From the NCBI GenBank assembly GCA_031288595.1, contig JAITRB010000008.1, forward strand, positions 20,806 through 52,805: DNA of 32,000 bases, given 5' to 3'. A program made the position numbers and the translations under genes. The notes beneath the pieces are model-generated. The model made no database searches and was not told the origin of the DNA. It was given only the letters and a program-made list of their open reading frames with translations. How positions within the stretch are numbered: position 1 is the stretch's first letter; each line of letters starts with the position of its first letter. Origin of the DNA: Puniceicoccales bacterium. GTDB taxonomy: Bacteria; Verrucomicrobiota; Verrucomicrobiia; Opitutales; JAIRLG01. Positions 2,235 through 29,820 of the stretch are shown here, one piece after another.

Positions 2235-2331
2235 CATCGCCTTTGCGTTCCCTGCAAGAAAAGGGGACTTTTGCTTGCAGGGAACGCCGCCTGCATCGCA
2301 GGCACGAGCCCGAAGGGCTCAAAAGGCGATG
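2235..2331 (+). repeat. Four-way-junction intergenic repeat, copy R1 (divergent). The strand field gives element orientation, defined as closing stem - long arm - arm2 - arm3 - closing stem.
   Basis: Closing stem CATCGCCTTT 2235-2244 / AAA(A)GGCGATG 2321-2331. Long arm CGTTCCCTGCAAG 2246-2258 / CTTGCAGGGAACG 2274-2286, with an inner AAAAG/CTTTT extension. Arm2 GCCTGC-atc-GCAGGC 2289-2303. Arm3 GAGCCC-gaa-GGGCTC 2306-2320. Confidence 0.7.
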
Positions 2332-2430
2332 CCCCACCGCTCAAACGAACGATAGAATCCCCAAACAAGCCCGCTTTCTATCTTCCATAAGTCCTGACGC
2401 TGCTCCTGCCCTAAAAGCCGTTCAGCGATG

Positions 2431-2452
2431 GGCCTTTGGAATCTCAAAGGCC
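2431..2452. repeat. Possible decayed right-end fragment of the repeat family (small hairpin)
   Basis: GGCCTTTGgaatctCAAAGGCC. The string CCTTTGGAATC(t)CAAAG matches the arm3/closing-stem junction of R5/R6 (CCTTTGGAATCCAAAGAC) apart from one inserted T. The other arms are absent. Confidence 0.3.
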
Positions 2453-2542
2453 GTGGCATTCCTCGGCACAGTTAGCAAGGCCCTTAATAATCCTTCGAAT
2501 GATCCGGATGCCTCATTTTGGGAAGCGAAAGCTGCGAGAGCA

Positions 2543-3133
2543 CTATTCACCTAATTGGTAGCGGACAAAGCGGCCGATGCGGATGTTTTCGCCGATGCGG
2601 GCCACGACGGAGGCTAGGTGCTCCTCAAGGCGAATGTCCTGATTGCGCGCGAAGGGCTGTTCGAGGAGGCAAACCTGGCTAAGCCACTTGTCTATCTTGC
2701 CCTCCACGATTTTTTCGACGACGGCTTGCGGCTTGCCGGCCACCTGGGCGTTGGCGATTTCCCTCTCCTGATCGATGACGGGCTGAGGAACGGAGTCACG
2801 GGAAAGGTAAAGCGGATTCGAGGCCGCGATGTGCAGGCAGATGTCCGCTGCCAGCTCCCGGAAATCCTCATTCCTCGCGACGAAGTCCGTCTCGCAGTTC
2901 AGCTCCAGGAGAACACCGATCCGTCCGCCGTTATGGACGTAGGACTCGATGATGCCGGCATGTGTTTCCCGACCGGCCTTTTTTGCAGCCGTTGCGGAGC
3001 CCTTTTTCCGGAGCAGGATGATGGCCTCTTCGATGCTGCCCTCGGCTTCGCCCAGCGCCTTTTTGCAGTCGACGAACCCAGCTCCACTGCGCCGTCTCAA
3101 TTCATTCACCTTCGCTGCTGTGATCTCTGACAT
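2543..3133 (-). CDS. tsf: Translation elongation factor Ts (short, 196 aa form)
   Basis: ORF track. MSEITAAKVNELRRRSGAGFVDCKKALGEAEGSIEEAIILLRKKG is the UBA-like N-terminus typical of EF-Ts. ATG at 3133-3131. Lies 19 nt downstream of rpsB, the classic rpsB-tsf order. Confidence 0.93.
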   Translation of the reverse strand: MSEITAAKVNELRRRSGAGFVDCKKALGEAEGSIEEAIILLRKKGSATAAKKAGRETHAGIIESYVHNGGRIGVLLELNCETDFVARNEDFRELAADICLHIAASNPLYLSRDSVPQPVIDQEREIANAQVAGKPQAVVEKIVEGKIDKWLSQVCLLEQPFARNQDIRLEEHLASVVARIGENIRIGRFVRYQLGE

Positions 3134-3152
3134 CTCAATGCTCCTCCTCGAT

Positions 3153-3941
3153 TTAAATGTCCGCCTCTCCCTCGATTTTCACCGCATCCGCTGCGTCGGA
3201 AACGATGGCTTCTCTGCTTGGAATTGTCTTCAACTGTCGGGATTCCCTCTTTTTTGCCTCGAAGAGCGCCTGCCCTCGTTCGATGGCCTCGACCAAGCAG
3301 GACAGGAGCAGCTGGATCGAGCGGGCCAAATCGTCGTTGGCGGGGATAGGATAGGTCACGAGCTCTGGATTCGAATTCGTGTCGACCAGCGCCACGACGG
3401 GAATGCCCAGGCGCCTTGCCTCGGCGACGGCGATGCTCTCCTTGTAGATGTCGACGACCAATAGGGTGGATGGCAATTGGGTCACCTCGACGAGGCCCTC
3501 GAAGCTGCGGAAGAGGCGGGCCATTTGGCGGCGGATAACTGAGGCTTCCTTTTTCAACATGGCGTCGAGGGAGCCGTCCTCCTGCATCCGGAGATAGTGG
3601 CGGTACTTGTTGAGGCTGCGATGAACGGTTTCGAAATTTGTCAGGCAACCGCCGAGCCAACGGTTGGGCACGAAGGGCATGTGAACCGAGCGGGCGGACT
3701 CGCGAACCGCCTCCTGGGCCTGTGCCTTGGTGCCGACAAACCAGATGCTCTGACCGCTGGAGGCGGTTTTTTCGAGAAAATCGCATGCCTTTTGCAATTG
3801 CCCCAAGGTCTTTTCCAGGTCGATGATGGAAAGGCCGCCGAGGCAGCCGTAGACGAATTTCTGGGACTTCGGGTTCCAGCGACGCCGCTGATGGCCGAGG
3901 TGTACTCCTGCCTCGAAGAGGTCCTGTATTGTCACGTTCAT
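3153..3941 (-). CDS. rpsB: 30S ribosomal protein S2
   Basis: ORF track. MNVTIQDLFEAGVHLGHQRRRWNPK... is the canonical S2 N-terminus. ATG at 3941-3939. Confidence 0.95.
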   Translation of the reverse strand: MNVTIQDLFEAGVHLGHQRRRWNPKSQKFVYGCLGGLSIIDLEKTLGQLQKACDFLEKTASSGQSIWFVGTKAQAQEAVRESARSVHMPFVPNRWLGGCLTNFETVHRSLNKYRHYLRMQEDGSLDAMLKKEASVIRRQMARLFRSFEGLVEVTQLPSTLLVVDIYKESIAVAEARRLGIPVVALVDTNSNPELVTYPIPANDDLARSIQLLLSCLVEAIERGQALFEAKKRESRQLKTIPSREAIVSDAADAVKIEGEADI

Positions 3942-4092
3942 AGATACTCCGTACCCTCGCGGGCCTTGGATGGAAACATGGGTTGAAGGTTGAGGCTCTC
4001 TTCATGAGGGGAGAAGTTCCCTTGGCAAGTTCTTTCTTGACAGAGGATTGTTCGAGGAGGGGTTGGGTAGAAAGGTGGCTGGGAGGTCAGTC

Positions 4093-4187
4093 GGCTGTCT
4101 TTGCAGAGCAGGGTATGAAAACAGCGTTTTCATGCCCTGCTCTGTCGTCCGCTGCGCGGACGCTCCCGAAGGGAGCCAAAGACGGCC
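4093..4187 (+). repeat. Four-way-junction intergenic repeat, copy R2
   Basis: Closing stem GGCTGTCTTTG 4093-4103 / CAAAGACGGCC 4177-4187 (one T:G, 4096:4184). Long arm 4104-4122 / 4126-4144, 19 bp with one T:G (4114:4134). Arm2 GTCCGC-tgc-GCGGAC 4147-4161. Arm3 GCTCCC-gaa-GGGAGC 4162-4176. Confidence 0.85.
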
Positions 4188-4224
4188 CTGCAAAGATCCC
4201 CCTCATAGACATTCTCACCGCTCT

Positions 4225-6813
4225 TCAGTCAAGCACCAGGTTGAGAAGTTTCTGCGGGACCCAGATGATGCGGCGAATCGTCTTCTCGTCGAGGTAGGGG
4301 CGCAATTTTTCCCTGGCCAGAGCCGCCCGTAGGGCTTCTTCCCGACTGCAGTTCAGGGGGAGATCCAATTCATCCCTCGGCTTGCCATTGACCATGAGGA
4401 CGATGCGGCCGCGCTCGGCGACGAGGAGTTGCGGGTCGAATCGCGGCCATGGGGCCTTGCTGATGCTAAAAGTCTCCCCTAAACGACTCCAGAGCTCCTC
4501 GGCGATGTGGGGGGCGAAGGGGGCCAGGAGCTGGAGGAAGACCTTGGCCGAATGCCGGCTGAGGGAGGAGGAAGTGGCCCCATTGACGAAGATCATCATC
4601 TGGGAAATAGCCGTGTTGAAACGCAGCTGCTCGATATCCTCCGTCACCTTGCGAATCGTCTCGTGTAGTCGGGGAAGCAGAGCCTCGTCGTCTTCTTCGG
4701 CCCAATCCTGTCCCATTCCATCGTCCTGAATGAAGAGCCGCCATACCTTTTTTAGAAAGCGGGAGCAGCCCTCGATGCCCTGGGTATTCCAGGGCTTCAT
4801 CGCGTCCAGAGGACCGAGAAACATCTCGTAGAGCCGCAGCGTATCGGCCCCATGGCTTCGGATGACTTCGTCCGGATTAACCACATTACCACGGCTCTTG
4901 GACATTTTACTGCCGTCCTCGCCGAGGATAATGCCCTGATGGAAGAGATGTGGATAGGGTTCGGGCCTGTCGATGGCGGCGATGTCGAAGAGGAAGCGCT
5001 GCCAGAACCGAGCGTAGAGGAGGTGTAACACGGCATGTTCCGCTCCGCCGATGTAGAAATCCGGACTGCCCCAGTAGTGCAGGCTTCCGGGGTCGACCGG
5101 CGCCTGTAGATCGTGCGGACTGAGGTAGCGCAGGTGGTACCAGCAAGAACCGGCCCACTGGGGCATCGTGTGGGTCTCCCGTCTGGCGAAAACCCAGTCC
5201 TCACCCGAGGGGATGTCTTGGCTCTGTGGCCGAATCTCCCCTGTCCGGAGATGGACCAGGATTTCGCAGAAATCTTCAGCCCTCCTCAGCGGACTTTCGC
5301 CCTGATCCGAAGGCTGGTAGGATACCACCGGCGGCAACTGAAGCGGCAGCTCCTTCGAGCTCAGGGGGATGGCGATCCAGGTGATGTCTCCCTCCTGGTA
5401 GGAGATGGCCTTGGAAGGAAGGAATTCCCTGAAGTATAAATCGGGCAGGCTTAGAGCTCGCTCGTAATCCCCTTGCTGGATCCAGAAAATGGGAATCGGT
5501 TCCCCCCAGTAGCGCTGTCGAGAGAAGAGCCAGTCGCGCAATTTGTACTGCACGCAGGCCTTGCCGCGGCCCAGGGCTTCCAGCTGTGCCGTGATCTTCT
5601 GCCGCGCCTGCGCCGAATCCAGGCCATTGAAGGCTTCGGAATGAAAGAGGATCCCGTCGTCGCAGAAGGGGAGCTTGCAAGCCGTCTCGTCTCCCTTTGG
5701 GACTGGCTGGATGACGGGAAGGATGGCCAGTCCGAATTTCTGGGCGAAGGCGAAATCCCGCTCGTCATGGGCCGGAACCGCCATGACGGCGCCGCTGCCA
5801 TAGCTCCCGAGAACGTAGTCCGCGACCCAGATGGGAATGTTTTTCCCCGTCAGGGGATGGATGGCCTGGGCCCCGCTGAACACACCGGTTTTTTCCCGAG
5901 CCAGGCCACCGCGCTCCAAATCGCTCTTCCGCCGGGCCCGCTCGATATAATCCTCCACCTCTCCGCGCTGGGCCGCACTCGCGAGGATCGGCAGCAGCGG
6001 ATGTTCCGGTGCCAGAACCAGGTAGGTCACCCCGTAAATCGTGTCGCAGCGGGTCGTGTAGACGGCCAGCGAATCCACCCGTCCCTCGATGTCGAAGCGG
6101 ATCTCCGTCCCCTCCGAGCGACCGATCCAGGCCCGCTGCTGCTGCTTCGTCGACTCCGGCCAATCCAGGGCATCGAGGTTCTCCAAAAGCCTGTCGGCGT
6201 AGGCGGTGATGCGCAATATCCACTGGCGCAGATTGCGCCGTTCTACCGGATGATTCCCGCGCTCGGAACGGCCGTCGATGACCTCCTCATTGGCCAGCAC
6301 GGACTTCAGCTCAGGGCACCACCAGACTGGCCGCTCATCCACATAGGCAAGACCTTGCTTGAAGAGTTGTAGGAAAATCCACTGCGTCCAGCGGTAGTAG
6401 TCCGGATCAGTCGTATTGATCTCGCGCTCCCAGTCGATGGCAAAACCCAGGCGGCGAATCTGTTCCCGAAAATGCCCGATGTTCTGGGCGGTATTGATGG
6501 CCGGGGCCTGGCCGGTGAGAAGGGCATGCTGCTCGGCCGGAAGACCGAAGGCATCCCAACCCATTGGGTGCAGGACGTTATACCCGCAACTCCACTTATA
6601 ACGGGCCAGGATATCGGAGGCGGTATAGCCTTCCGGATGTCCGATATGCAGCCCGGCACCCGAAGGGTAGGGGAACATATCGAGAACGTAGTACTTTTTC
6701 TTCCCGCAATCGATGGGTTCCGTCGCGAAGGTCTTCTCCTCTAACCACCGCGCCTGCCAAAAGGCCTCAATTTTTTGGAAATCGTAAAATCCGCCATCGC
6801 CGTGCGCTTTCAT
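4225..6813 (-). CDS. leuS: Leucyl-tRNA synthetase
   Basis: ORF track, 862 aa. Class I signatures HIGHPEGY (HIGH) and KMSKS are present. ATG at 6813-6811. Confidence 0.96.
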   Translation of the reverse strand: MKAHGDGGFYDFQKIEAFWQARWLEEKTFATEPIDCGKKKYYVLDMFPYPSGAGLHIGHPEGYTASDILARYKWSCGYNVLHPMGWDAFGLPAEQHALLTGQAPAINTAQNIGHFREQIRRLGFAIDWEREINTTDPDYYRWTQWIFLQLFKQGLAYVDERPVWWCPELKSVLANEEVIDGRSERGNHPVERRNLRQWILRITAYADRLLENLDALDWPESTKQQQRAWIGRSEGTEIRFDIEGRVDSLAVYTTRCDTIYGVTYLVLAPEHPLLPILASAAQRGEVEDYIERARRKSDLERGGLAREKTGVFSGAQAIHPLTGKNIPIWVADYVLGSYGSGAVMAVPAHDERDFAFAQKFGLAILPVIQPVPKGDETACKLPFCDDGILFHSEAFNGLDSAQARQKITAQLEALGRGKACVQYKLRDWLFSRQRYWGEPIPIFWIQQGDYERALSLPDLYFREFLPSKAISYQEGDITWIAIPLSSKELPLQLPPVVSYQPSDQGESPLRRAEDFCEILVHLRTGEIRPQSQDIPSGEDWVFARRETHTMPQWAGSCWYHLRYLSPHDLQAPVDPGSLHYWGSPDFYIGGAEHAVLHLLYARFWQRFLFDIAAIDRPEPYPHLFHQGIILGEDGSKMSKSRGNVVNPDEVIRSHGADTLRLYEMFLGPLDAMKPWNTQGIEGCSRFLKKVWRLFIQDDGMGQDWAEEDDEALLPRLHETIRKVTEDIEQLRFNTAISQMMIFVNGATSSSLSRHSAKVFLQLLAPFAPHIAEELWSRLGETFSISKAPWPRFDPQLLVAERGRIVLMVNGKPRDELDLPLNCSREEALRAALAREKLRPYLDEKTIRRIIWVPQKLLNLVLD

Positions 6814-6875
6814 GGTGCAGATCTCTCTGATGTCATCCGATGGATGAGGCGAGGAGCTATTCCAATCCTTTCGCC

Positions 6876-8108
6876 CTAGGATGAGGGATGCTTAACGGGG
6901 ATCTGCTTCAGGTAATTGGCGAAGGGCAAGCCCTCCTCATCCCTCAGCTCGGGATTACCCTGGATGAGAGGCAGGGCATACCTTGAAAAAATAGGCTGGA
7001 CGTGGCAGGCATCTTCCTCCAACCAGTTGAGGGGAAATGCTTTTTCCGACTGGATGACATTCGACAGGTCCGTGAGGTCGTACTTCACGCCGTAGGAATT
7101 CCCCTCTTCCCGCAGGAGTGTCAGCATCTGTCCCGAATGCCCCTCGATGGCCCACCGTACCGCCTGGCGACCTCCGCCAAAGGCCTCTGTCAGGTCCGTC
7201 TGGGAGGCCCAGTGGGCCGCTGCTCCCTGGGTCGCGCCCAACGAGATGACGCGGACGGGCACATTGAGCTCGGCGTTGATCATGGCCTTCAGGAGGCTGC
7301 CTGCGCCGGCCATCGCCGCAGGAAAATCCGCCTTTGAAATGATGGAATTTCCCTCGGCATCGACGATGCCCTCGGCGACGACGAGGAGGCAGTGATTCAA
7401 GGACTGCAGGACGGTCTGGACGTCATTGAGCAGCTGCTCCTTGGAAAAGGCCACCTCCGGCAGATAGAGGATGTGAGGAGCATCCTCCGGATGATTCGCT
7501 CTCTTGGCCAAAGAGGCGCCGGCGGCCAACCAACCCGTGTGCCGTCCCGCGACCTCGACCACCGACACGAGGTGGGGAAGTCCAGAGGAGAGTCCGTCCA
7601 TGGCCACTTCCCGCACCGTCGTGGCGATGTACTTCAATGCACTTCCGTAGCCCGGGCAATGATCGGTCACGGCGAGATCGTTGTCAATGCTCTGGGGAAG
7701 CCCCATCGTCTGCAGCGGCCAGGCCTGTTCCTGGGCATAGCTGTGGAGGCGGAAGAGTTCTTCCTGCGCCGAGCGGTCACCGATGCTGAAGAAATAGCGG
7801 ATGTGATGATTTTTTAAAACTTCTAAAATGCGCGGAAAATCCTCCGCCTTCGAGGGACTGCGCGGCCCGAGGCCGAGGGCCGCACCGGCCCTCGTCTTCA
7901 GGGCCCGAATATTCTGCTGCGATTCGGCGGCCAGGTCGATGAAATGCCCCCCCAAAATTCCAGAAAATCCCCGCAATCCACCGTAAATTTCCCCGATGCA
8001 TTCGTGGTCTAGGGCCTCGGCGATGATACCGCTGAGACTCGCATTGCTCGCACAGGAAGCACTGCCGGACTGTATCACCAATAAATTGCCGCTCGCCATC
8101 GTTTCCAT
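6876..8108 (-). CDS. Phosphofructokinase-family protein (ATP- or PPi-dependent type undetermined) with degenerate catalytic motifs
   Basis: ORF track 6876..8171. The 8171 start is a TTG; the first ATG is at 8108-8106 (METMASGNLLVIQSG...). The PFK-family motifs GLPQSIDNDL and VVEVAGRHTGWLA are retained. The motifs corresponding to SGGDAPGMN, GGDGS and GHxQRGG read SGSASCASN, IGDRSA and GATQGAA. Confidence 0.75.
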   Translation of the reverse strand: METMASGNLLVIQSGSASCASNASLSGIIAEALDHECIGEIYGGLRGFSGILGGHFIDLAAESQQNIRALKTRAGAALGLGPRSPSKAEDFPRILEVLKNHHIRYFFSIGDRSAQEELFRLHSYAQEQAWPLQTMGLPQSIDNDLAVTDHCPGYGSALKYIATTVREVAMDGLSSGLPHLVSVVEVAGRHTGWLAAGASLAKRANHPEDAPHILYLPEVAFSKEQLLNDVQTVLQSLNHCLLVVAEGIVDAEGNSIISKADFPAAMAGAGSLLKAMINAELNVPVRVISLGATQGAAAHWASQTDLTEAFGGGRQAVRWAIEGHSGQMLTLLREEGNSYGVKYDLTDLSNVIQSEKAFPLNWLEEDACHVQPIFSRYALPLIQGNPELRDEEGLPFANYLKQIPVKHPSS

Positions 8109-8227
8109 ACGCTTCTCTCTTTGTAGATTTTCTGTAAGGGGAAAGCTGCTCTTTTTGGGAGGTGAAAGCAATCTAAAAACGGTCAGAGGGCCTTCGGGGT
8201 CTGTGAAAATTTCTCAGCGATTTCTGT

Positions 8228-8887
8228 TTGAAAATTTTTTACGGACTGCTAGATAAAAATTCCATGAGAGGAGAGGAATCTGGAGACCAAAGCCCGAAGG
8301 GCGTATCGGGGATGGACGCTGACTTCCGGGATGCATCGCGGAAATCCGCAGCTCCTACGGCGGAGGAGCTGGGCGCTGCGGCCGAGGGGATGGGCTCCCA
8401 AGGAATGCCTGTTTCTCCGGAGGAGAGGAAGTACCTGGCCGCCTATGTCCAGCTACAGGCTGATTTCGAGAATTTCAAAAAGCGGGCCGCACGGGAGCGG
8501 GAGGAATGGCTCAAGCTTTCCAATCGCCGGCTCATCGAGGAACTGCTGACCATCGTCGACCATCTCGACCTCGCCCTGCAGTCGGCCAAACCCGAAGATG
8601 AGAAGGGACAGCAGATCACCCAGGGCTTCGCGATGATCGTCGGGCAGTTTAAAAAGCTACTGGCCGAGCAGGGTTTGGTCGAAGTGGGGAAGGTCGGAGA
8701 GCCCTTCAACCCCAGAGATCACGAAGCGGTGGGTCAGAGCACCCATCCGACGGTCCCCATCGACCATATCTGCCAGCTCGTCCGGCCGGGCTATCGACTC
8801 CACGACTTCACCTTACGCCCCGCCTCGGTCATCGTATCCCATGGCCCAGAAAGGGAAAACAAGCCGAAGGAGGAAGTCCTCTCATGA
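8228..8887 (+). CDS. grpE: Nucleotide exchange factor GrpE (start codon uncertain; internal ATGs at codons 13 and 29 are alternatives)
   Basis: ORF track. [21 protein letters not shown] and the C-terminal ...FNPRDHEAV...[14 protein letters not shown] match GrpE. The stop TGA overlaps the dnaJ ATG (ATGA at 8884-8887). Confidence 0.88.
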
Positions 8888-10050
8888 GTGCAGCCGAGGA
8901 TTATTACGGGCTCCTGGGGGTATCCAAAACGGCGACGGAGGACGAGATCAAGAAGGCCTATCGGAAGATGGCCGTCAAATACCATCCGGATAAGAACCCG
9001 GGCGACAAGAATGCCGAGGAGAAGTTCAAGAAGATCTCAGCGGCCTATGAGGTACTCCATGACCCATCCAAACGCGCGGCCTATGACCGTTACGGAGCGG
9101 CGGCCTTCGATCCCCAGTCAGGTGGCATGGGCGGAGCGACCCGAGGAGGATTTCAGGGAAGCTTTCACCAGGAATTCGGAGGATTCTCCAATCCTTTTGA
9201 TATTTTCCGCGAGGTCTTCGGCGGGGGCATCGGCGAGTTCTTCGGCGGCGGCCGTTCCCACCGCAGTGGCTCCCGCTCCTCATCCGGAGCTGACCTGCGC
9301 TACGACCTGGAAATCACGCTCCTGGAGGCCTTTCGTGGGGTCGAGAAGACCCTAAGTTACCACCGCCATGTGGCTTGTACCCATTGCCATGGCAGTGGGG
9401 CGGAGAAGGGCTCTTCGCGTACTACCTGCGCGACCTGTCGAGGTTCGGGCTGTGTCACGACCTCCCAGGGCTACATGACGATTCAGCAGAGCTGCCCGCG
9501 CTGCCAGGGTCAGGGAGTGGTGATCGAAAAGCCCTGTCCGCACTGCTACGGCGAGGGAAGGGTCGTGGAGTCGACGACGACGAAGGTTCGGGTACCGGCC
9601 GGGATCGATTCCGGCATGCAGCTGCGCCTAGCAGGCTTCGGCGAGGTTGGGGAGCAGGGTGGGACTGCGGGCCATCTCTATGTGCGGGTAGAGCTAAAGG
9701 AGGACAAGCATTTCGAACGCCATGGAAATGACCTGCACTGCCGCGTGTCTCTGCCCTTTTCTTTACTGGTTCTCGGCGGCGAGACGAATATCGATACCAT
9801 CGACGGCCAGGCGATTTTGAAAATTCCGGCCGGCACGCAGGCCGAGAGCGTCCTGCGCGTCCGTGGGCAGGGAATGCCCATTCTCGAGCAGGGCGGTGCT
9901 CGGGGAGACCAGCTCGTCCACGTCGCCGTCGAGGTGCCGAAGAAATTGACCCATGAGCAGCGGGAAAAGCTAGAGGCCTTCGCCCAGGCCTGCAGCTCCT
10001 CTTCTAAAAGTAGCTTCTTCGACCGCCTCCGCGGCAGCTTCGGCCTCTGA
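8884..10050 (+). CDS. dnaJ: Molecular chaperone DnaJ (type I: J domain, G/F region, four CxxCxGxG repeats)
   Basis: ORF track. DYYGLLGV...YHPDKNPGD carries the HPD motif. The four zinc repeats are [24 protein letters not shown] and CPHCYGEG. Confidence 0.95.
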
Positions 10051-10107
10051 GACCGGGTTAGGGGAGAGATCCTGCTCCATGGGAGATCTTGCTTCTTTCA
10101 AGGGGGC

Positions 10108-10201
10108 GCTGTCTTTGGATTCCGGAGGAATCAGCCCGCTGCGCGGGCTCCAAGGGGAGAAAAAGGAAAAACTTTCCTTTTTCTCCCCTTGCAAAGACAG
10201 C
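10108..10201 (-). repeat. Four-way-junction intergenic repeat, copy R3 (inverted orientation)
   Basis: Closing stem GCTGTCTTTG 10108-10117 / CAAAGACAGC 10192-10201. Arm3 GATTCC-gga-GGAATC 10118-10132. Arm2 AGCCCGC-tgc-GCGGGCT 10133-10149. Long arm GGGGAGAAAAAGGAAA 10154-10169 / TTTCCTTTTTCTCCCC 10173-10188 (16 bp, perfect, polypurine/polypyrimidine). Confidence 0.88.
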
Positions 10202-10241
10202 AAAAAAATAGCCCTAGAGATACTTTTCCCCCGAGAAAGAC

Positions 10242-10934
10242 TCAGGCCATCGCCGGCAGGACGAGTTGCTTCTGAACGGCTGCCGCGAGTTCGCGAATTT
10301 CCCCTAGGGTTTCACCCATAGATTCCGTTTCTTTTCCGAGATCGAGGTAGCTCTGTTCCGCTTCATTCAGAAGAGACAGCGCGCGCTCGAAGTGCTGCGC
10401 ATCCCTGTGACATTCGGCCGCAGATAGCAACAAAATTGGATTTTTGGGAAAGAGATTGATGAGGAAGTCGTAGATTTTTGCAGCGGCCCCGATATCCTCG
10501 TTAGCCAGATCCTCCGCCAACATCACGTAGGCATAGAGATTGGGCTGTCCGTCGTTGGAAAAAAGGGACAGCCATTGGAACAGCTTTCCCGATAGCTCCG
10601 CCTTTCCCTGCTGCAGCAGGGCCTCTGCTTCCTGCTCCAGAGCGGACACCTCTTCCTCGGAAAGGGACTGAAGCGCGGCCTCTATTCCTTCCCTTTCGAG
10701 AACCTGGAAAATCTTAAGGCCGATGCTTTGGAATTCCTCCTGCCGCAGAAGGTGCTGCCAGGCATCCCGATAGGCGCGTTGCGACTGTTCCAGGGCCCTT
10801 TGCAGAGCCGGCTCTTCCTTTTCCGGAAGGGGGATTCTCCGCAGCATAGCCTCGATCCCAACCCCAAAGGCCTCCATTAGCTCCTCCCAGTTCGCCTCCC
10901 CATCGTGCCCAGGTTCCCCTTTTTCCCTATCCAT
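10242..10934 (-). CDS. Hypothetical acidic helical-repeat (TPR-like) protein; start uncertain (ATG 10934, or ATG 10877 which is preceded by GGGAGGAG)
   Basis: ORF track 10242..11132, but its first 66 codons run through repeat R4 and were trimmed. The C-terminal half (LYAYVMLAEDLANEDIGAAAKIYDFLINLFPKNPILLLSAAECHRDAQHFERALSLLNEAEQ) has a TPR-like helical-hairpin character. Confidence 0.55.
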   Translation of the reverse strand: MDREKGEPGHDGEANWEELMEAFGVGIEAMLRRIPLPEKEEPALQRALEQSQRAYRDAWQHLLRQEEFQSIGLKIFQVLEREGIEAALQSLSEEEVSALEQEAEALLQQGKAELSGKLFQWLSLFSNDGQPNLYAYVMLAEDLANEDIGAAAKIYDFLINLFPKNPILLLSAAECHRDAQHFERALSLLNEAEQSYLDLGKETESMGETLGEIRELAAAVQKQLVLPAMA

Positions 10935-11040
10935 AACGGAGATGGATTCTAGAAAAAATGTTCGTTCTTGGCAAAGTAAAAATGGAGAGATGCGTCGGGG
11001 TCGATGGGACAGGAGAAATAGAGAGGGATAAGGGAAGCTT

Positions 11041-11128
11041 TCCCGCTGTCTTGGAATCCCTTTGGGATTCGCCCGCTTCGCGGGCCGCAGGGAGGCCGCT
11101 CCGCGGCCTCCCTGCCAAGACAGCGGGA
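11041..11128 (-). repeat. Four-way-junction intergenic repeat, copy R4 (inverted orientation)
   Basis: Closing stem TCCCGCTGTCTTGG 11041-11054 / CCAAGACAGCGGGA 11115-11128 (14 bp, perfect). Arm3 AATCCC-ttt-GGGATT 11055-11069. Arm2 GCCCGC-ttc-GCGGGC 11071-11085. Long arm CAGGGAGGCCGC 11088-11099 / GCGGCCTCCCTG 11103-11114. Confidence 0.88.
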
Positions 11129-11173
11129 ACACAGCAAGCCCGGAGGATCCGTGGGGCTGGGGGATACCAACCC

Positions 11174-13741: not shown

Positions 13742-13766
13742 CTTGAATGTCCTCGACGGGAGATTT

Positions 13767-14231
13767 TTAGGGAGACTTCGTCCCTTCCTCCTCTAAACAG
13801 GCGATCTGTAGCCGTCCAAAGCCGCTGCGTTTGGCCATGGCGCTTACCTGACACAGGATACCGACAGACAGGTCTTTGTCCGGACGCAGAAGCAGAGTGG
13901 CGGGGCGAAGGGTGTGCTGTGAGAGGAAATAACGCAGGGCTCCTTCCAGAGTCTTCAGGGTGAGAATCTGGCCGTCGAAAAAAAAGAGCTGATCATTCGA
14001 CAAGGTCAGAACGCCCAGAGTCGGCGCGGCTGACAGCGGGCCCGGGAGCTGGGGCAAGGCCACATTCATTCCCGGAGAGAGGATGAAGCGGGAGCTCAAG
14101 AGAGAAAAGGCGAAGATGAAGAATCCCACATTAGCTATGGCCCAGAAGTCCAGCCAATGCTCCGGCGGCGGCAGATGGCTGTGCCGGATAAAGGTGGATA
14201 TTTTCATGGCATGAGCTCTTTCACGCTTCAT
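13767..14231 (-). CDS. exbD: ExbD/TolR-family biopolymer transport protein
   Basis: ORF track 13767..14234 begins at a GTG; the ATG is at 14231-14229. It has a single N-terminal TM segment (WAIANVGFFIFAFSLLSS), is small, and sits immediately after an ExbB/TolQ-type gene with stop/start overlap (TGATG). Confidence 0.7.
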   Translation of the reverse strand: MKRERAHAMKISTFIRHSHLPPPEHWLDFWAIANVGFFIFAFSLLSSRFILSPGMNVALPQLPGPLSAAPTLGVLTLSNDQLFFFDGQILTLKTLEGALRYFLSQHTLRPATLLLRPDKDLSVGILCQVSAMAKRSGFGRLQIACLEEEGTKSP

Positions 14232-14941: not shown

Positions 14942-15003
14942 CCTTTCGTCTGTGAAAATTTTACTTGTCCGGAGTTGATTTCAAGTTTCCCTGGAGGGAA
15001 ACT

Positions 15004-15615: not shown

Positions 15616-15655
15616 TCCCTCCGAGAGACCCGGCGCGGAGCAGGTCCCGCGATGC

Positions 15656-15756
15656 TTTCGCTGTCTTTGCAAGGAGGAGAGGAGGGATTCTTCCCTCCTC
15701 TCCTCCTTGTGGCCCGCTCTGCGGGCCGATTCCTTTGGAATCCAAAGACAGCGAAA
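15656..15756 (+). repeat. Four-way-junction intergenic repeat, copy R5
   Basis: Closing stem TTTCGCTGTCTTTG 15656-15669 / CAAAGACAGCGAAA 15743-15756 (14 bp). Long arm CAAGGAGGAGAGGAGGGA 15670-15687 / TCCCTCCTCTCCTCCTTG 15692-15709 (18 bp, perfect, polypurine). Arm2 GGCCCGC-tct-GCGGGCC 15711-15727. Arm3 GATTCC-ttt-GGAATC 15728-15742. Confidence 0.9.
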
Positions 15757-15876
15757 AGCCGCTGGCCGATTGCTCGAGTTCCCCGACCAGGTCGTCTGGC
15801 AAAAACGGAATGACTTTTAAACTGGCCTTCCGAGAGAAATACCCACATTGGCCACCGTCGCACGGACCTCACTCCC

Positions 15877-17571: not shown

Positions 17572-17675
17572 GGGAAGTACCCCTTCACGAGCCTTCTGAT
17601 CAGTCCATAAAGGCTGAGTCTCTAGGCTGCCTAAGGAATGGCGATGGGGGCTCCCCACAGCTTCCGGCTATCTCG

Positions 17676-17761
17676 TTCGCCGTCTTTGCAGCGCGCCCAC
17701 GGAGTGGGCGCGCTGGGGCCCGCTCCGCGGGCGATTCCTTTTGGAATCCAAAGACGGCGAA
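17676..17761 (+). repeat. Four-way-junction intergenic repeat, copy R6
   Basis: Closing stem TTCGCCGTCTTTG 17676-17688 / CAAAGACGGCGAA 17749-17761. Long arm CAGCGCGCCCAC 17689-17700 / GTGGGCGCGCTG 17704-17715. Arm2 GCCCGC-tcc-GCGGGC 17718-17732. Arm3 GATTCC-tttt-GGAATC 17733-17748. Confidence 0.9.
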
Positions 17762-18154
17762 GGAATACCCGCCGTGAGAATTTTTCATTTTTAGGTTTAA
17801 AGACCCCATGGCCCTGTCCCTAGGGCATTGACCTTTGAAGAATGGCTGGTCTTGTAGACTGTAAAGCATCCATCAGCACTTGCCTTTGCCAGAACATCCG
17901 CTGGGTTCTGGTAAAGAGATGGTTGTTAAAAATTTTCCCTTTTACCGCTTTGGGAAGGGCTGGAGGCCTATGGCTGTATCCTGCAGATGAGACTGGTTCG
18001 TAGAGAAGTATTAAAATGGATTTTTCGGGCACAAGTCCTCTAGGCGGATATAGGGACGGGTAAACCTCCCTCTTAGTGCAGAATCTTTCTCCTGCGGAAC
18101 GAAGGGCGATCCTTATCTTTACTCGGTGGGAGGCCATTTCTCGGCTCATCACCG

Positions 18155-18247
18155 GTGCGCCGCCTTGAAGCCCTATGGGCTTCTGTCCGCTACGCGGACA
18201 GCGTGGACAGCCGTGGCCCCCCACGGCTGTCCACGCAGGCGGCGCAC
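18155..18247 (-). repeat. Four-way-junction intergenic repeat, copy R7 (inverted orientation; same architecture, unrelated closing-stem sequence)
   Basis: Closing stem GTGCGCCGCCT 18155-18165 / AGGCGGCGCAC 18237-18247. Arm3 GAAGCCC-tat-GGGCTTC 18167-18183. Arm2 TGTCCGC-tac-GCGGACA 18184-18200. Long arm GCGTGGACAGCCGTGG 18201-18216 / CCACGGCTGTCCACGC 18221-18236 (16 bp, perfect). Confidence 0.8.
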
Positions 18248-18322
18248 AAAAGAGACGAACACCTCCCTATCTCCATCTTCAGGAGTCTATCAAGGGAGAT
18301 AAGGAGGAAGATAGCGAGACCC

Positions 18323-18574
18323 TTAAGGCCTTCTTCGGCGCTGGAACTTACTCTGGAATTTCTCGACACGACCAGCGGTGTCGACGAGGCGCTTCTCGCC
18401 GGTGTAAGCGGGATGAGAATCGGAGCTCACGTCGCGGTGGATGAGTTCATACTCCACTCCATCGATCAGCTCCTTGTTCCTGGAACGCAGGGTCGAAATC
18501 GTCAGAAAGCGCCGGCCGGTGGAGATGTCGCAAAAACATACCGGTCTGGCATCAGGGTGGATCTCCTTTTTCAT
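18323..18574 (-). CDS. rpmE2: 50S ribosomal protein L31, type B (Zn-ribbon-less, YkgM-like)
   Basis: This is the internal part of ORF-track entry 18323..18772, with the ATG at 18574-18572. The sequence is MKKEIHPDARPVCFCDISTGRRFLTISTLRSRNKELIDGVEYELIHRDVSSDSHPAYTGEKRLVDTAGRVEKFQSKF. DVSSDSHPAYTG replaces the second CxxC of type A L31, as in E. coli YkgM (DVSSKSHPFYTG). Confidence 0.9.
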   Translation of the reverse strand: MKKEIHPDARPVCFCDISTGRRFLTISTLRSRNKELIDGVEYELIHRDVSSDSHPAYTGEKRLVDTAGRVEKFQSKFQRRRRP

Positions 18575-18591
18575 GGCGATGACAATTTTTC

Positions 18592-18717
18592 TTAACCCTG
18601 GCGAGCCTTGAAGCGCGGATGGCTCTTGCAGATCACGTAAATCCGCCCCTTGCGCCGCACGACCTGGCAGTCCGCATGGCGACTCTTCAAGGACTTTAAA
18701 GATGACACGACCTTCAT
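18592..18717 (-). CDS. rpmJ2: 50S ribosomal protein L36, C-minus (YkgO-like) form; 41 codons, below the ORF-track size cutoff
   Basis: Manual translation of the minus strand from ATG 18717-18715 to TAA 18594-18592 gives [41 protein letters not shown]. This closely resembles E. coli YkgO ([41 protein letters not shown]...). GGAG lies upstream (GGTGGAGATATTATG). It sits 17 nt upstream of the L31 gene on the same strand. Confidence 0.88.
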
Positions 18718-18892
18718 AATATCTCCACCATTGGTAGGGAAAAAAATCTTCGCAGGGCCTCCCGCCAATCAATGTGGAATCTAGGTGTTCAACGAAGGGC
18801 TTCTGCCTCCGGCGTCAAGTTTTTTTCTCTCTCCATGCCGCTACAATTTTACCCGATATATCTTCAGGGCAATAGCTCGGAGCCTCGAATTT

Positions 18893-18906
18893 CGAAATGC
18901 ATTTCG
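18893..18906. promoter_or_regulatory. Perfect 14-bp palindrome CGAAATGCATTTCG in the rpmJ2/alaS divergent region; candidate operator, regulator unknown
   Basis: The sequence equals its own reverse complement. It ends 13 nt upstream of the predicted alaS -35 box and lies about 176 nt upstream of the L36 start on the other strand. Confidence 0.35.
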
Positions 18907-18919
18907 TTCCATTCGGGGA

Positions 18920-18948
18920 TTGAAAAGTGAAGCTCCGAGGTGCATAAT
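18920..18948 (+). promoter_or_regulatory. Sigma-70-type promoter candidate for alaS (-35 TTGAAA, 17-nt spacer, -10 CATAAT)
   Basis: TTGAAA at 18920-18925, spacer 18926-18942 (17 nt), CATAAT at 18943-18948. The alaS ATG is at 18963, which implies a very short leader (under ~10 nt) with no Shine-Dalgarno sequence. Confidence 0.5.
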
Positions 18949-18962
18949 GCTGGAAACAGACT

Positions 18963-24772: not shown

Positions 24773-24853
24773 AAGGATCTTAGCTTCATTTTCGCCGGAA
24801 TGATTTTCCCCAAGATAGTGCTGGGACCTGCGTGGGAAAATGTCGTCAAGGGG

Positions 24854-26416: not shown

Positions 26417-26457
26417 ATCCCTTTCCTAAGCTCCTCTTCCCTGAGGAGATTAGAGGA

Positions 26458-28671
26458 TCAGGAGTATAGCATATCACCTGGAATTTGCAAAATTTCTCGT
26501 TCGAGAAAGAGCTGGAAACGCTCGAAAACCTGACAGCGGATATGCTCGATGAGGCGGCGAACATCTTCGGAGGAGGCGTGACCGCGATTGACGATGAAAT
26601 TGGCATGCTGCTCGGAAATTTCCGCACCACCTAGGCGAAAGCCGCGGAGGCCGCAGCGATCAACGAGTTCCCAGGCCTTCGGACTTCCGGTGCCCGGATT
26701 GCGAAAGATACTGCCGGCATTCGGCCATCGCGGCTGCTGCTCCAGGCGTTGCCGCAAGAATTTTTTCTGTAAAGCCCAGGAGGTTTCCGGTGCCACCGGG
26801 GGGAATTCAAAAAGCGCCGAGAGAATGCACTCGCCGTTCCGGCGAAAGCCGCGGCGATATTGCCAGTTGATCTCGTTTTTGGGGATCCAGCTCTTCCGTC
26901 CATCGCGGTCAATGCGGTGAATCGCCAATAGGTAGTCGGACAGGACTACACCGTTGGCCCCGGCATTCATGGCCAGCGCTCCGCCCACCGTTGCCGGAAT
27001 GGCACCGAGGGCCTCGATGCCACCGAGGGAATGGGAGCTCAGGTGATGACAGAGCGCCCGCAGGGACATGCCGGCCCCGACCTGGACCCGGTTCTTCTCT
27101 TTCAGGCAAAAGCCTCTAAAGACCGCCTGATTCAAGGAGAGGACGAGACCGGGAACGCCCCTGTCCTCGCAGAGGATGTTGGAACCATTGCCCAGAACGA
27201 ATACGGGGAGACTGTAATCTCGGGCAAGGAGGAGGATTTCCCGAAGCTGCTCCTCGTTCTGCGGCTCGGCCCAAAACCGTGCAGGGCCGCCGATTCTGAA
27301 GCTCGTCCGGTGGGCCATAGGCTCATTTTCCCTCACCGACATTGTCTGAAGCTTAGTATTGGCCTTCGATTTTTTCTCCAATGCCCTGGCCTGAATTTCC
27401 GGCAGCGAGTCCAGAAAGGTGGAGGGACCCACGCTTAGGTAAACACAGCAGAATGCCCCGTCCGCTGGCCAAAGCCATGGTTCGATCGCATCCGGTATAG
27501 CCGGGATCGCCGAGACGGTTTCGCGGGCGAGGCTTGGGGGAAGGTGCTCGGCGATGCGCTCGCAAGTCCCTTCCGGATTAAAGGACTCATCGGAAGGGTC
27601 GGTGGGAACGAAGCAAATGCGTTCTGCCAATCGGAGCGCTTCGGCGAACTCGCGGGCATACTGCTGGACACGGGAAAAGCGATGCGGGCGGAAGATGACG
27701 CCCAGGCGATGGGCCGGATAGCGGTGGCGAAAATGCTCAAGCGAGGCGCGAATTTCGTTCGGATGATGCGCGTGGTCGCAGAAGAAGAGATGCTTCTCTA
27801 TCGTGGCCAGAAAATTATTGCGCTGGAAAATTCCTGGGAAATGGGAAAAGGCTTCGAGTGCGGGGAAGTCGCCCGTCATGTGCCGAAAGGCTTCGGCGAT
27901 GAGGTTGTAGTCGATGCGCCGAAAGCCCTGAAACAGGGCCTGGAATTCTCGGGAGTAGGGCAGGTGTTCGCACTCGCAGGGGCAGTGCTCACGGCCGGAC
28001 TCTTCCGCCAGACGCCGGAGCAGTGCGTCCTCTTTGGGGAAGAAAACGCACCGTCGGGTGCGTCGAAACAGTTCCTGAAAGCTGTGCTGGATGGCCTCGA
28101 CGCTGCCGTAGTTGACGATATGATCGGAGCCGATGTTGAGGACAAGGGTCATCTCGGGAGAGAAATGATCCATGGTCCGGTCGCTCTCGTCGATTTCGGA
28201 GACCACCCATTCACTGGAGGCATCGTGGTGGGCCGGTGCCACCTGAGAATCGCAGAAAAGTCCGCCCAGCAGATAGCTGCAGGGGATTCCCTGTTCCCGC
28301 AGGATATGGATGAAGGTACCAGTCGTGGTCGTCTTGCCATTCGAGCCGATAATGGCGATGAGTTTTTTCTCCTCCACCATCCGGGCCCAGAAAACCCCGC
28401 GGCGGGTCAGGGGAAGCTGCCGCTCTAGGGCTTTTTGGTAGAGCGGATGTTCCTCGTGGATGGCAGTGGAAAAGATGACCTCGTCGATATTTTGGGGAAA
28501 TTCCGGAAGGACCAGCAGGACTACCTTGGCCGTCTCGAGGTGATGCCGCACCCGCTCGGCCAGACCATCATCCCAGCCATAGACCTCATGTCCCTGCTCC
28601 GCGAGGTAGATGGCCAGCGGTGCCATCCCCATGCCCCCTACACCCAACAGTAGATAGGATTTTTGTTCCAT
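26458..28671 (-). CDS. murCB: Fusion protein: UDP-N-acetylmuramate--L-alanine ligase (MurC, N-terminal ~440 aa) plus UDP-N-acetylenolpyruvoylglucosamine reductase (MurB, C-terminal ~290 aa)
   Basis: ORF track, 737 aa. MurC motifs: LLLGVGGMGMAPLAIYL, IAIIGSNGKTTTTG, DHAHHPNEI. MurB motifs: HRTSFRIGGPARFWAEP, FVLGNGSNIL, GAIPATVGGALAMNAGANG, WPNAGSIFRNP, GGAEISEQHANFIVN. Confidence 0.9.
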   Translation of the reverse strand: MEQKSYLLLGVGGMGMAPLAIYLAEQGHEVYGWDDGLAERVRHHLETAKVVLLVLPEFPQNIDEVIFSTAIHEEHPLYQKALERQLPLTRRGVFWARMVEEKKLIAIIGSNGKTTTTGTFIHILREQGIPCSYLLGGLFCDSQVAPAHHDASSEWVVSEIDESDRTMDHFSPEMTLVLNIGSDHIVNYGSVEAIQHSFQELFRRTRRCVFFPKEDALLRRLAEESGREHCPCECEHLPYSREFQALFQGFRRIDYNLIAEAFRHMTGDFPALEAFSHFPGIFQRNNFLATIEKHLFFCDHAHHPNEIRASLEHFRHRYPAHRLGVIFRPHRFSRVQQYAREFAEALRLAERICFVPTDPSDESFNPEGTCERIAEHLPPSLARETVSAIPAIPDAIEPWLWPADGAFCCVYLSVGPSTFLDSLPEIQARALEKKSKANTKLQTMSVRENEPMAHRTSFRIGGPARFWAEPQNEEQLREILLLARDYSLPVFVLGNGSNILCEDRGVPGLVLSLNQAVFRGFCLKEKNRVQVGAGMSLRALCHHLSSHSLGGIEALGAIPATVGGALAMNAGANGVVLSDYLLAIHRIDRDGRKSWIPKNEINWQYRRGFRRNGECILSALFEFPPVAPETSWALQKKFLRQRLEQQPRWPNAGSIFRNPGTGSPKAWELVDRCGLRGFRLGGAEISEQHANFIVNRGHASSEDVRRLIEHIRCQVFERFQLFLEREILQIPGDMLYS

Positions 28672-28738
28672 AAATGCGGGATAAAATTGCCATAAAAAGG
28701 AGGAAGGTTTGCCTCTGCAACAAGATTAATTCGGCACA

Positions 28739-29647
28739 ATGAGCCCTATGGCAGAGATCATTGATGGTAAAAAACTAGCGGAGACCCTGTATCAGGGACT
28801 TCGCCGGAGAATGCGGGGCCTTGAGAAAAATCCACCGGCCCTGGCTTTGGTGTGTGTCGGCGAGCATCCAGAGTCCCAGATCTACCTGCGGCAGAAGCGG
28901 AGAGTGGCTGAAGAGCTCGGCATCCGCGTGCAGCCGGAATTTCTCCCGGCCGAAGCCAGCCGTGAGGAGATCTTCGCCACCATCGACCGGCTCAACGCAG
29001 ACACTTCTGTCCACGGGATTCTCGTCCAATCGCCGCTACCCCATCGCGCCCTGGAGCTTGAGGTCTTCAACCGCGTCGCGGCGGAGAAGGATGTCGATGG
29101 CTTCGGAGCCCTCAACCTCGGCAGGCTCTGCCAAGGAGATCCTTCCGGTTTCTGGCCCTGCACACCGGCGGGCGTGCATCGGATTCTCCGCTCGATCGGC
29201 ATTCCCATCGCGGGGAAGCACGCGGTTATCTTGGGCCGCAGCCTCATTGTCGGGAAGCCCATGGGTCTGATTTTACTGCAGCGCGGTCCCTGGGCCGATG
29301 CGACGGTGAGCTTGGGGCATTCCATGACCCGAGATCTAGATGAACTCACCCGTCAGGCCGATATTCTGGTCAGCGCCATGGGACAGCCGGCCCGGGTTAA
29401 GGCCTCCATGGTAAAGCCCGGGGCTATCGTCATCGACGTGGGCCTCACGCGTGTTCCCGACCCGAGCCAGGCATCGGGCCATCGGCTTCAGGGCGATGTC
29501 GCCTTCGAAGAGGTTTCCCAAGTGGCCTCTTTCCTCACGCCCATCCCGGGTGGTGTGGGGCCGATGACCGTCGCTGAGCTGATGGCCAATACTCTGAAGG
29601 CCTATGAACGGCAGAGCGGTCGGATTGCCCCCTCCGAGGAAGCTTGA
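28739..29647 (+). CDS. folD: Bifunctional methylenetetrahydrofolate dehydrogenase / methenyltetrahydrofolate cyclohydrolase
   Basis: ORF track. IIDGKKLAE..., GILVQSPLP, DVDGF, GKHAVILGRSLIVGKPM and PIPGGVGPMTVAELM are all FolD motifs. The start could instead be ATG 28748. Confidence 0.94.
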   Translation: MSPMAEIIDGKKLAETLYQGLRRRMRGLEKNPPALALVCVGEHPESQIYLRQKRRVAEELGIRVQPEFLPAEASREEIFATIDRLNADTSVHGILVQSPLPHRALELEVFNRVAAEKDVDGFGALNLGRLCQGDPSGFWPCTPAGVHRILRSIGIPIAGKHAVILGRSLIVGKPMGLILLQRGPWADATVSLGHSMTRDLDELTRQADILVSAMGQPARVKASMVKPGAIVIDVGLTRVPDPSQASGHRLQGDVAFEEVSQVASFLTPIPGGVGPMTVAELMANTLKAYERQSGRIAPSEEA

Positions 29648-29738
29648 AAATCGCCTCGGGCACGCCCATCCCGGATGGAATTTTTATTCTCAGTAGAGCT
29701 GGTGAGCGATTGCCCAAAATCTCTGATTGTTCTCCGGT

Positions 29739-29820
29739 GGCTGTCTTTGCCGCATGAAAATGTCCATTTTCATGCGGGGGCTCGCTCTGCGAGCGATCCC
29801 TTTGGGATCCAAAGACAGCC
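29739..29820 (+). repeat. Four-way-junction intergenic repeat, copy R8
   Basis: Closing stem GGCTGTCTTTG 29739-29749 / CAAAGACAGCC 29810-29820, extendable by 3 more pairs including T29738:G29821. Long arm CCGCATGAAAAT 29750-29761 / ATTTTCATGCGG 29766-29777. Arm2 GCTCGC-tct-GCGAGC 29780-29794. Arm3 GATCCC-ttt-GGGATC 29795-29809. Confidence 0.9.

Follow-up and report, generated by a model that had tools for sequence, protein, structure and literature searches.

Intergenic palindromes with a covarying four-helix fold recur at conserved positions in termite-gut Puniceicoccales genomes

Introduction

Why should the same branched palindrome stand eight times between the housekeeping genes of one bacterial contig? 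The stretch analysed here (the window: 32,000 nucleotides, positions 20,806 to 52,805 of contig JAITRB010000008.1, assembly GCA_031288595.1, from a Puniceicoccales bacterium of the Verrucomicrobiota) contains eight copies, R1 to R8, of an intergenic element in which a closing stem encloses three hairpins that abut one another, a layout that corresponds to a four-way junction. A preliminary description, made from the letters of the window, offered three options: a mobile DNA element resembling repetitive extragenic palindromes (REPs) or miniature inverted-repeat transposable elements (MITEs), a structured RNA in 3′ untranslated regions (UTRs) acting as a terminator or stabiliser, and a protein-binding cruciform. 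We asked whether the element extends beyond the window, whether its helices are maintained as DNA or as RNA, and how its copies are inherited.

Results

The element belongs to a family that keeps its layout

A covariance model built from 68 oriented copies was used to scan the window without filters and recovered exactly R1–R8 and nothing else (55–90 bits on the best strand). Each copy folds on both strands, with RNA as well as DNA parameters, into the closing stem and three abutting hairpins, as the preliminary description had drawn them; the stem dimensions, the consensus sequences and the occurrence of both orientations were also as described. Minimum free energies (MFEs) range from −34.5 to −52.7 kcal/mol with DNA parameters, under which the MFE structure represents 31–68% of the ensemble. 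The z-scores against 200 dinucleotide shuffles lie between −8.8 and −14.3, and no shuffle folds as well. Read along the plus strand, the long hairpin precedes the two small ones in R1, R2, R5, R6 and R8, and the order is reversed in R3, R4 and R7. At eight copies per 32 kb, the elements occupy about 700 of the roughly 3,260 intergenic nucleotides of the window.

Outside the window, one genome per species was scanned with a pattern of fixed 10-bp closing-stem arms and 55–85 free interior bases. This yielded 68 loci, 49 in three termite-gut Puniceicoccales metagenome-assembled genomes (MAGs) and 19 in scattered unrelated taxa, the latter about the number expected from chance matching of the pattern. 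The interior was left free by the pattern, yet the three-hairpin layout is present in 59 of 60 Puniceicoccales matches and in none of the 19 in other taxa, which excludes chance. A metagenome collection, serving as negative control, gave 90 pattern matches and no family member; the one match with three hairpins is weak (−36 kcal/mol) and lacks the two core hairpins. This shows that the family is rare in the metagenome collection scanned. The viral collection held one pattern match, without the fold, and the phage and plasmid collections held none.

The covariance model found 129 copies in 363 kb of four related Puniceicoccales genomes (the window and 50 sampled loci, the latter numbered with an L). 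Of the 129, 127 keep the layout, including 64 of the 65 that the search pattern alone would have missed. The preliminary description had made the interest of the element depend on further copies that retain the four-stem layout, and such copies are what the related genomes hold. The sampled DNA carries one copy per 2.3–4 kb, or one per 3.5–7.3 kb counting only copies not used for fetching; most loci were fetched through the consensus closing stem, which inflates both density and closing-stem identity, a bias from which only the window, L069 and L070 are exempt.

The window DNA is 85–88% identical to one MAG, bin38, over three syntenic stretches and about 70% identical to two other MAGs, and the sampled loci with copies span 46% to 61% G+C. 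Among FolD homologues, identity falls from 64–86% directly to at most 57%, and no copy was found at loci around FolD proteins of 53–54% identity. Given this gap and these copy-free loci, the family appears restricted to one clade. Model matches are cut off at the ends of L005, L006, L025, L027, L041, L044 and L064, which suggests that the repeats fragment short-read assemblies of the sampled genomes.

All four helices covary

Covariation was measured on a 68-sequence alignment, with partners slid by 1–3 columns and 500 shuffles as controls. Standard pairs fill 95.8% of cells, versus 35–48% with slid partners. Both sides change in 27 of 35 pairs, compensatory changes occur in all four helices, and none of the 500 shuffles reaches the observed scores.

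The unit, 77–123 nt from core stem to core stem, comprises four helices. Its A-poor/T-poor closing stem, GCTGTCTTTG...CAAAGACAGC with variants, is 99.6% paired and exists in several types (GCTGTC, GCCGCC, GCTGGC, GCCGGC, GCTGCC, ATCGCC). Extra complementary pairs lie outside the 10-bp closing core in 117 of 127 copies, mostly over 3–8 bp, against about 48 of 127 under a shuffled-partner null. These outer pairs vary in sequence (GGG/CCC, TTC/GAA, TGC/GCA and others). The 8 nt upstream are almost free of A and the 8 nt downstream almost free of T, with a flank profile of TTTTKKS upstream and SMMAAAA downstream.

The two small hairpins have 6–7 bp, are conserved in sequence and always end in a C-G closing pair. 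Variants of the GC hairpin are GCCCGC, GCTCGC, GTCCGC, GCCTGC and GCCCAC; those of the other small hairpin are GATTCC, GAGCCC, GCTCCC, GATCCC and GATTTC. About 70% of the triloops of both hairpins are GNA or its complement TNC, where 12.5% would be expected, and all four bases occur in the middle position. A loop and its reverse complement are both frequent (GCA 22 and TGC 13; TCC 18 and GGA 13; GAA 32 and TTC 18), and a loop can be flipped between orthologs. DNA hairpins typically show such minute inversions, chloroplast spacers being one example. A GC hairpin with a GNA or TNC loop creates GCGNAGC on one strand, an extraordinarily stable and well-studied DNA mini-hairpin (PMC3201870, PMC13037366).

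The long hairpin had been called copy-specific. This holds for 60 of 127 copies, which are singletons; the others fall into families of up to 17 copies. The 5′ arm is purine-rich in 113 of 126 copies, and the tip is moderately richer in A+T than the base. One subfamily, with closing stem GCCGCCTTTG, a long hairpin containing AAAAATGCAAAGCGGGAGCTTTCATTTTT and gttt...aaac flanks, has a near-identical long arm and recurs many times, at L052, L014, L004, L018 and L064 in Ct408_bin121 and at L003, L008, L015 and L039 in Pcl387_bin136. It lies within the largest long-hairpin cluster (17 members), in two lower-GC genomes, and looks like a recent burst, unlike the mostly unique long arms elsewhere. 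A search for long hairpins copied from other genomic DNA gave no support for such an origin: a 12-mer test was swamped by chance matches, and of the 127 copies 18 had 16-mer matches, at least some of which are unmasked or partial copies or orthologs.

Covariation is Watson-Crick only and orientation is random relative to transcription

The four helices covary with Watson-Crick pairs only, without sign of selection on an RNA strand. On each strand G·U accounts for 1.2% of the pairs, and the mean free energy per strand is nearly equal (−64.3 versus −64.2 kcal/mol). Single mismatches (1×1) on the element strand number 25 of the G·T type and 23 of the A·C type; where copies are flanked by co-oriented genes, the sense strand shows 8 and 9, a small sample of 17. 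Selection at the RNA level would tolerate G·U far better than A·C, so that near-equal mismatch counts point to DNA.

Orientation relative to transcription is random (31:25), as is loop polarity relative to the sense strand. Copies occupy 47 of 112 tandem spacers (42%), 21 of 44 divergent spacers (48%) and 18 of 38 convergent spacers (47%), in classes assigned by heuristic gene calls that were wrong at least once (L041:1441). One clear case of a copy in a divergent spacer is L063:616-710, between murC-murB and folD. Downstream positions +1 to +8 contain 2–10% T, and on both strands a T-run stands upstream and an A-run downstream. An intrinsic (Rho-independent) terminator was rejected: the element has no U-tract, its T-run is on the wrong side, copies stand in divergent spacers, and orientation is split 31:25. 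Canonical intrinsic terminators are not in excess in positions 1–20000 of the window (23 versus 21.1 expected from shuffles), and several of the 23 terminator-like sites are parts of repeat elements. A known RNA family was likewise not found, as Rfam 15 gave no match at gathering score and only spurious miRNA-hairpin matches at E ≤ 5. Of the 16 small-hairpin loops in the window, 12 are rich in pyrimidines on the plus strand. A link of loop polarity to chromosome strand, and thus to replication direction, was dismissed as chance, with no concordance across multi-copy loci (observed 35, null 43, p = 0.95).

Copies persist at orthologous sites while their flanks turn over

Similarity of flanks between genomes identified 11 orthologous intergenic sites. 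Ten of the 11 are occupied in both genomes, with the same orientation in 10 of 10. Between orthologs, identity is 0.97 in the closing-stem core, 0.79 in the GC hairpin, 0.82 in the small hairpin and 0.72 in the long hairpin, whereas the 60-nt flanks reach 0.50, against 0.48 for unrelated 60-mers. Ascertainment explains part of the 0.97, and the pairs involving the window, L069 and L070, which were fetched through FolD, show the same pattern. The copy between folD and priA (R8) persists in five genomes (also L063, L017, L069 and L070), always at the same spot and with the same orientation, down to 67% FolD amino-acid identity, and is the only alignable part of its spacer. In two more distant syntenic contigs, L071 and L072, this spacer is empty and 11 nt long.

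Each genome holds several hairpin subtypes, and orthologs retain their own subtype in 9 of 11 sets, which favours vertical descent under constraint over homogenisation among the copies. Concerted evolution is therefore disfavoured as the cause of core conservation. The core and the long arm change at different rates: 3–10% of pairs change in the core helices, compared with 31% among the 12 pairs nearest the base of the long hairpin. Between orthologs, the long arm shows 36 double Watson-Crick changes versus 17 single ones. At flank identities near 75% (L001/L016, L060/L039 and L007/L047) the long hairpin can be wholly different, yet still a perfect palindrome. Together, these comparisons show vertical inheritance of the copies and their maintenance by purifying selection at fixed sites between genes.

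Copies can also be gained. L063:616-710, of the R7 subfamily, is found only in bin38; the corresponding divergent spacer of the window, L069, L070 and L017 lacks it. The inserted block measures about 155 nt, larger than the element, and is bounded by a possible, uncertain imperfect duplication of about 14 nt. That new copies arise rarely and without target-site duplication has been shown once.

Neighbouring copies and copy boundaries

Gaps between neighbouring copies fall into two groups, 34–267 nt or at least 400 nt. All 19 close pairs are heterotypic in their closing stem; pairs of the commonest type (A-A) number 0, versus 5.7 expected. Such heterotypic pairing would be the outcome of selection for correct folding, or of selection against recombination between identical arms. 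Direct repeats at copy boundaries do not exceed a shuffled-partner null, so there is no systematic target-site duplication; the flanks are instead complementary for 3–8 bp in most copies. None of the sampled loci showed an insertion sequence that shares the element's termini and could be its parent.

Gene context of the eight copies

The genes of the window are housekeeping genes: tsf, leuS, a pyrophosphate-type phosphofructokinase (PPi-type PFK) gene, grpE, dnaJ, mutS, exbBD, rpmE, alaS, malQ, a murC-murB fusion, folD and priA. Table 1 lists the copies among them and the parts of R5, the exemplar.

Table 1. Positions, orientation and model scores of the eight copies in the window, with the parts of R5
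Feature	Position	Strand	Description	Score (bits)	z-score
R1	2235..2331	+	variant closing-stem type ATCGCCTTT/AAAGGCGAT, long hairpin first	69.6	-11.0
R2	4093..4187	+		85.6	-8.8
R3	10108..10201	-	reverse orientation, 19-bp perfect arms	87.7	-10.5
R4	11041..11128	-	reverse orientation	81.4	-10.0
R5	15656..15756	+	exemplar copy	89.5	-14.3
R5 closing 5′ arm	15656-15669				
R5 long hairpin	15670-15709				
R5 linker	15710		T		
R5 GC hairpin	15711-15727				
R5 small hairpin	15728-15742				
R5 closing 3′ arm	15743-15756				
R6	17676..17761	+	closing stem GCCGTC/GACGGC	83.8	-10.6
R7	18155..18247	-	closing-stem type GTGCGCCGCC, reverse orientation	55.4	-13.9
R8	29739..29820	+	between folD and priA	86.3	-9.4

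R1 occupies a tandem spacer at a distance of 212 nt downstream from the stop codon of tsf (minus strand), and its bin38 ortholog (L054:6019-6113) keeps the core with a changed distal long hairpin. The gene on its other side is large and runs on the minus strand through window positions 1–1935, where it is cut by the window edge and absent from the list of open reading frames (ORFs); this is what places R1 in a tandem spacer and not beside the small ORF 1884-2237. The bin38 ortholog of that gene, L054:2303-5860, encodes 1,185 amino acids (aa), and the N-terminus of its product looks like pyruvate:ferredoxin oxidoreductase. R2 follows the leuS stop by 38 nt and precedes an rpsB-like gene, and its long-hairpin family recurs at L054:2127 and L055:7023. 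Upstream of tsf on the minus strand, ORFs 3106-4005 and 3153-3941 overlap in different frames. The former has a G+C content at third codon positions (GC3) of 0.41, a non-coding pattern, and no Pfam match; the latter has a coding-like GC3 of 0.76 and sits where rpsB is expected.

R3 separates the convergent dnaJ and TPR genes. R4 follows the mutS stop by 49 nt, and its closing stem is lengthened by TCCC/GGGA (an extension of 5). The R5 ortholog, L041:1441-1532, carries a compensatory change. R6 is found 107 nt downstream of an ABC permease stop; at its ortholog, L041:3530, the closing stem reads GCTGTC/GACAGC, a compensatory pair, and the GC-hairpin loop is flipped (TCC in R6, GGA in L041). R7, the heterotypic neighbour of R6, lies 79 nt downstream of the rpmE stop.

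The preliminary description named three ORF calls as inflated by the element, and this was confirmed: 10242..11132 overlaps R4; 29727..31883 overlaps R8, with the PriA domain beginning only at aa 53; and 17820..18224 overlaps R7, has no Pfam match and lacks coding-like GC3.

Between R6 and R7, positions 17765-18150 form a unique non-coding stretch of 386 nt, with a G+C content of 48% versus 58% for the window. It has no Rfam match, no coding-like ORF and no second copy among the sampled loci. The counterparts of R6 and R7 in the bin38 ortholog (L041) are only about 32 nt apart, so either the window lineage gained the block or bin38 lost it.

A single ORF of 737 aa at 26458-28671 (minus strand) contains Mur_ligase, Mur_ligase_M and Mur_ligase_C followed by FAD_binding_4 and MurB_C, and from this domain order is read as a putative murC-murB fusion. 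The same fusion ORF is present in the syntenic contig L070, and such fusions are known from Verrucomicrobium. A run of N at about L069:5325-5372, masked or a scaffold gap, falls within murC-murB of that JGI contig and is irrelevant to the repeats.

Discussion

The presence of conserved, intact copies at the same positions across species points to a function at the DNA level, rather than to junk or a structured RNA. We favour, with moderate confidence, a lineage-restricted family of REP/BIME-like interspersed DNA palindromes that act as folded DNA with a structure-specific protein partner. The unit would then be a composite of four inverted repeats acting as DNA, and a strand that is unpaired, or under negative supercoiling, could fold into the same four-way junction whichever strand it is. 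The conserved core, consisting of the closing stem and the two mini-hairpins, may form the recognition surface of the putative protein. By analogy with REPs and their RAYT transposases, that partner might be a single-copy HUH/Y1-type enzyme, or else it might be host-encoded. The long arm would contribute only stability or nucleation of extrusion and would be free to change while it remained palindromic. Loop flips and the excess of double changes could result from templated palindrome repair within a strand, from compensatory selection, or from both. As for the options first offered, REP-like structure-forming DNA is supported and a protein-binding cruciform or folded single strand is compatible with the data, while the 3′-UTR terminator or RNA and the classic MITE are disfavoured.

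Several points weigh against the favoured interpretation. Stems of 6 bp are short for cruciform extrusion from duplex DNA. The excess of GNA and TNC loops could stem in part from a few founder copies. The sense-strand mismatches are few, the spacer classes depend on heuristic calls, and fetching through the closing stem inflates its apparent identity, as noted above. The model also misses decayed copies, which introduces survivorship bias. A candidate enzyme did not emerge from the sampled DNA: phmmer with E. coli RayT gave no match at E ≤ 10 among 2,687 six-frame ORF segments from 385 kb, a search of low power with one distant query and partial genomes, and no transposase was noticed among 24 element-flanked genes, which look housekeeping when read by eye only. 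Finally, the two gain or empty-site comparisons involve blocks of about 155 nt and about 250 nt, both exceeding the element, so the element as delimited here may not be the unit that moves.

As the main alternative, the element could function as a structured RNA in UTRs, protecting mRNA ends, serving as a processing site for RNase III or another enzyme, or insulating transcripts, and it could do so in either orientation since both strands fold alike. All eight window copies lie 38–212 nt downstream of a stop codon, their folds are very stable with RNA parameters too, and there is no excess of canonical terminators in the window that would otherwise define 3′ ends. REPs and Correia/ERIC elements, moreover, are established to act on mRNA stability (discussed in PMC3733652). 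We nevertheless consider an RNA role unlikely, because in the larger sample divergent (5′-5′) spacers are occupied as often as 3′ spacers, orientation is random, G·U is not favoured over A·C, the loops are of the DNA-type GNA class with random polarity, and there is neither a U-tract nor an Rfam 15 match.

Two weaker explanations invoke DNA mobility. A purely selfish MITE, non-autonomous and dispersed by a DDE transposase, would have as its terminal inverted repeat the closing stem, which resembles one at 10–18 bp, and internal hairpins of no use to the host. The recurrence of one long hairpin at many loci (up to 17 copies), the single lineage-specific gain and the frequent breaking of contigs at copies fit such an element. 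Selfish decay, however, predicts otherwise than what old orthologs show, namely core sequence and pairing that are kept while flanks are saturated. Target-site duplications are lacking and the flanks are inverted complements; orientation is conserved at all 10 occupied sites, hairpin subtypes have not been homogenised, and no transposase was found near copies (the 24 flanked genes read by eye and the weak RAYT search). These features render a selfish MITE improbable. A folded single-strand recombination site, comparable to integron attC or the CTX phage attP and used by a tyrosine recombinase, would account for the conserved structure with a free central sequence, for one arm of variable length as in attC (here the long hairpin as variable terminal structure), for the missing target-site duplication and for the DNA-level behaviour. 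In attC, however, recognition is strand-specific, whereas the two strands are equivalent here and no extrahelical bases are present; there is no GTTRRRY/RYYYAAC core, and the neighbours are syntenic housekeeping genes in conserved order rather than cassettes. We regard this last explanation as very improbable.

How does the family compare with described repeats? REPs are defined as a single imperfect palindrome of 20–40 nt with GTAG or CGTC at one end (PMC3733652). The likeness to REP, BIME and REPIN elements, which are mobilised by RAYT and occur in Proteobacteria and Opitutus terrae, lies in short GC-rich palindromic intergenic repeats, of which REPs number hundreds of copies, in their occurrence in either orientation and in the lack of target-site duplications. 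BIMEs are mosaics of different types, in which REP heterodimers are preferred (PMC3733652), as the 19 of 19 heterotypic pairs are here; persistence at orthologous sites has been reported for REPINs (10.1101/2021.07.10.451892), and REPs are assumed to work as DNA or as protein-binding structures. The cognate RAYT of REPs is a Y1 transposase encoded by a single-copy gene that the repeats usually flank. The present units differ in their length of 77–123 nt and their four-helix junction, in the absence of a GTAG or CGTC tag at either end of the alignment and consensus, and in the hypervariable arm and GNA/TNC triloops. Opitutus terrae, of the same class, is reported to abound in GTAG REPs (PMC3733652), so the group is no stranger to palindromic repeats.

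Bacterial MITEs with conserved folds (Correia/NEMIS, ERIC/IRU, the Bacillus cereus bcr1 group, Nezha and Chunjie) are also about 100 nt long, intergenic and abundant, with terminal inverted repeats and a stable predicted fold, and compensatory changes are known in some such families (bcr1). They form one long hairpin and have direct target-site duplications (TA, TTTAT and others), whereas the family described here has a branched fold, no duplication and a core conserved in old orthologous copies. The inverted terminal repeats of parvoviruses such as adeno-associated virus (AAV) provide an architectural parallel. They form a T-shaped hairpin, a stem with two short internal palindromes closed by 3-nt loops, that is recognised by the HUH protein Rep. 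In AAV the small arms flip from one orientation to the other, folding occurs in single-stranded DNA, and HUH recognition is specific for both structure and sequence. That junction is three-way and lies at the ends of a linear viral genome, while here a four-way junction is spread across a bacterial chromosome, and no homology is implied. Integron attC sites share structure-based recognition, conserved outer stems, a variable terminal structure and folding as single-stranded DNA. Strand specificity, extrahelical bases, R and L boxes and mobile cassettes set attC apart, and none of these is found here: the attC core boxes (RYYYAAC/GTTRRRY) are missing from the consensus, the stems are fully paired and the neighbours are syntenic housekeeping genes.

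The preliminary description recognised no known family in the element, and no four-way-junction repeat was found to be described in Rfam 15, the phage and plasmid collections or the literature searched. The family is thus apparently undescribed, REP/BIME-like in its working, yet failing the defining tests of REPs, DDE-type MITEs, terminators and attC.

We tentatively raise a bolder possibility, that the element is a new type of DNA signal maintained by the host and not a transposon relic. Such a signal would be a branched palindrome, forming a four-way junction on both strands at intergenic positions fixed across the clade, and read by a junction-specific protein, for instance in nucleoid or supercoil organisation or in replication and repair. 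One arm would renew itself by self-templated repair and would thereby be hypervariable yet perfectly paired.

REP, BIME and REPIN elements are among the oldest unexplained features of bacterial genomes, and nearly all studied cases are simple hairpins in Proteobacteria. In practical terms, the present element breaks MAG assemblies and inflates ORF calls, and the covariance model would allow it to be masked. The family in these uncultured Verrucomicrobiota offers an unusually clean natural experiment, with a four-helix architecture, a core conserved in sequence and an arm conserved in structure only. Its Watson-Crick-only covariation, DNA-type triloops, heterotypic neighbours and copies that outlast the turnover of their flanks make constraint at the DNA level separable from constraint at the RNA level by sequence analysis alone, and this set of features predicts a protein that recognises the junction.

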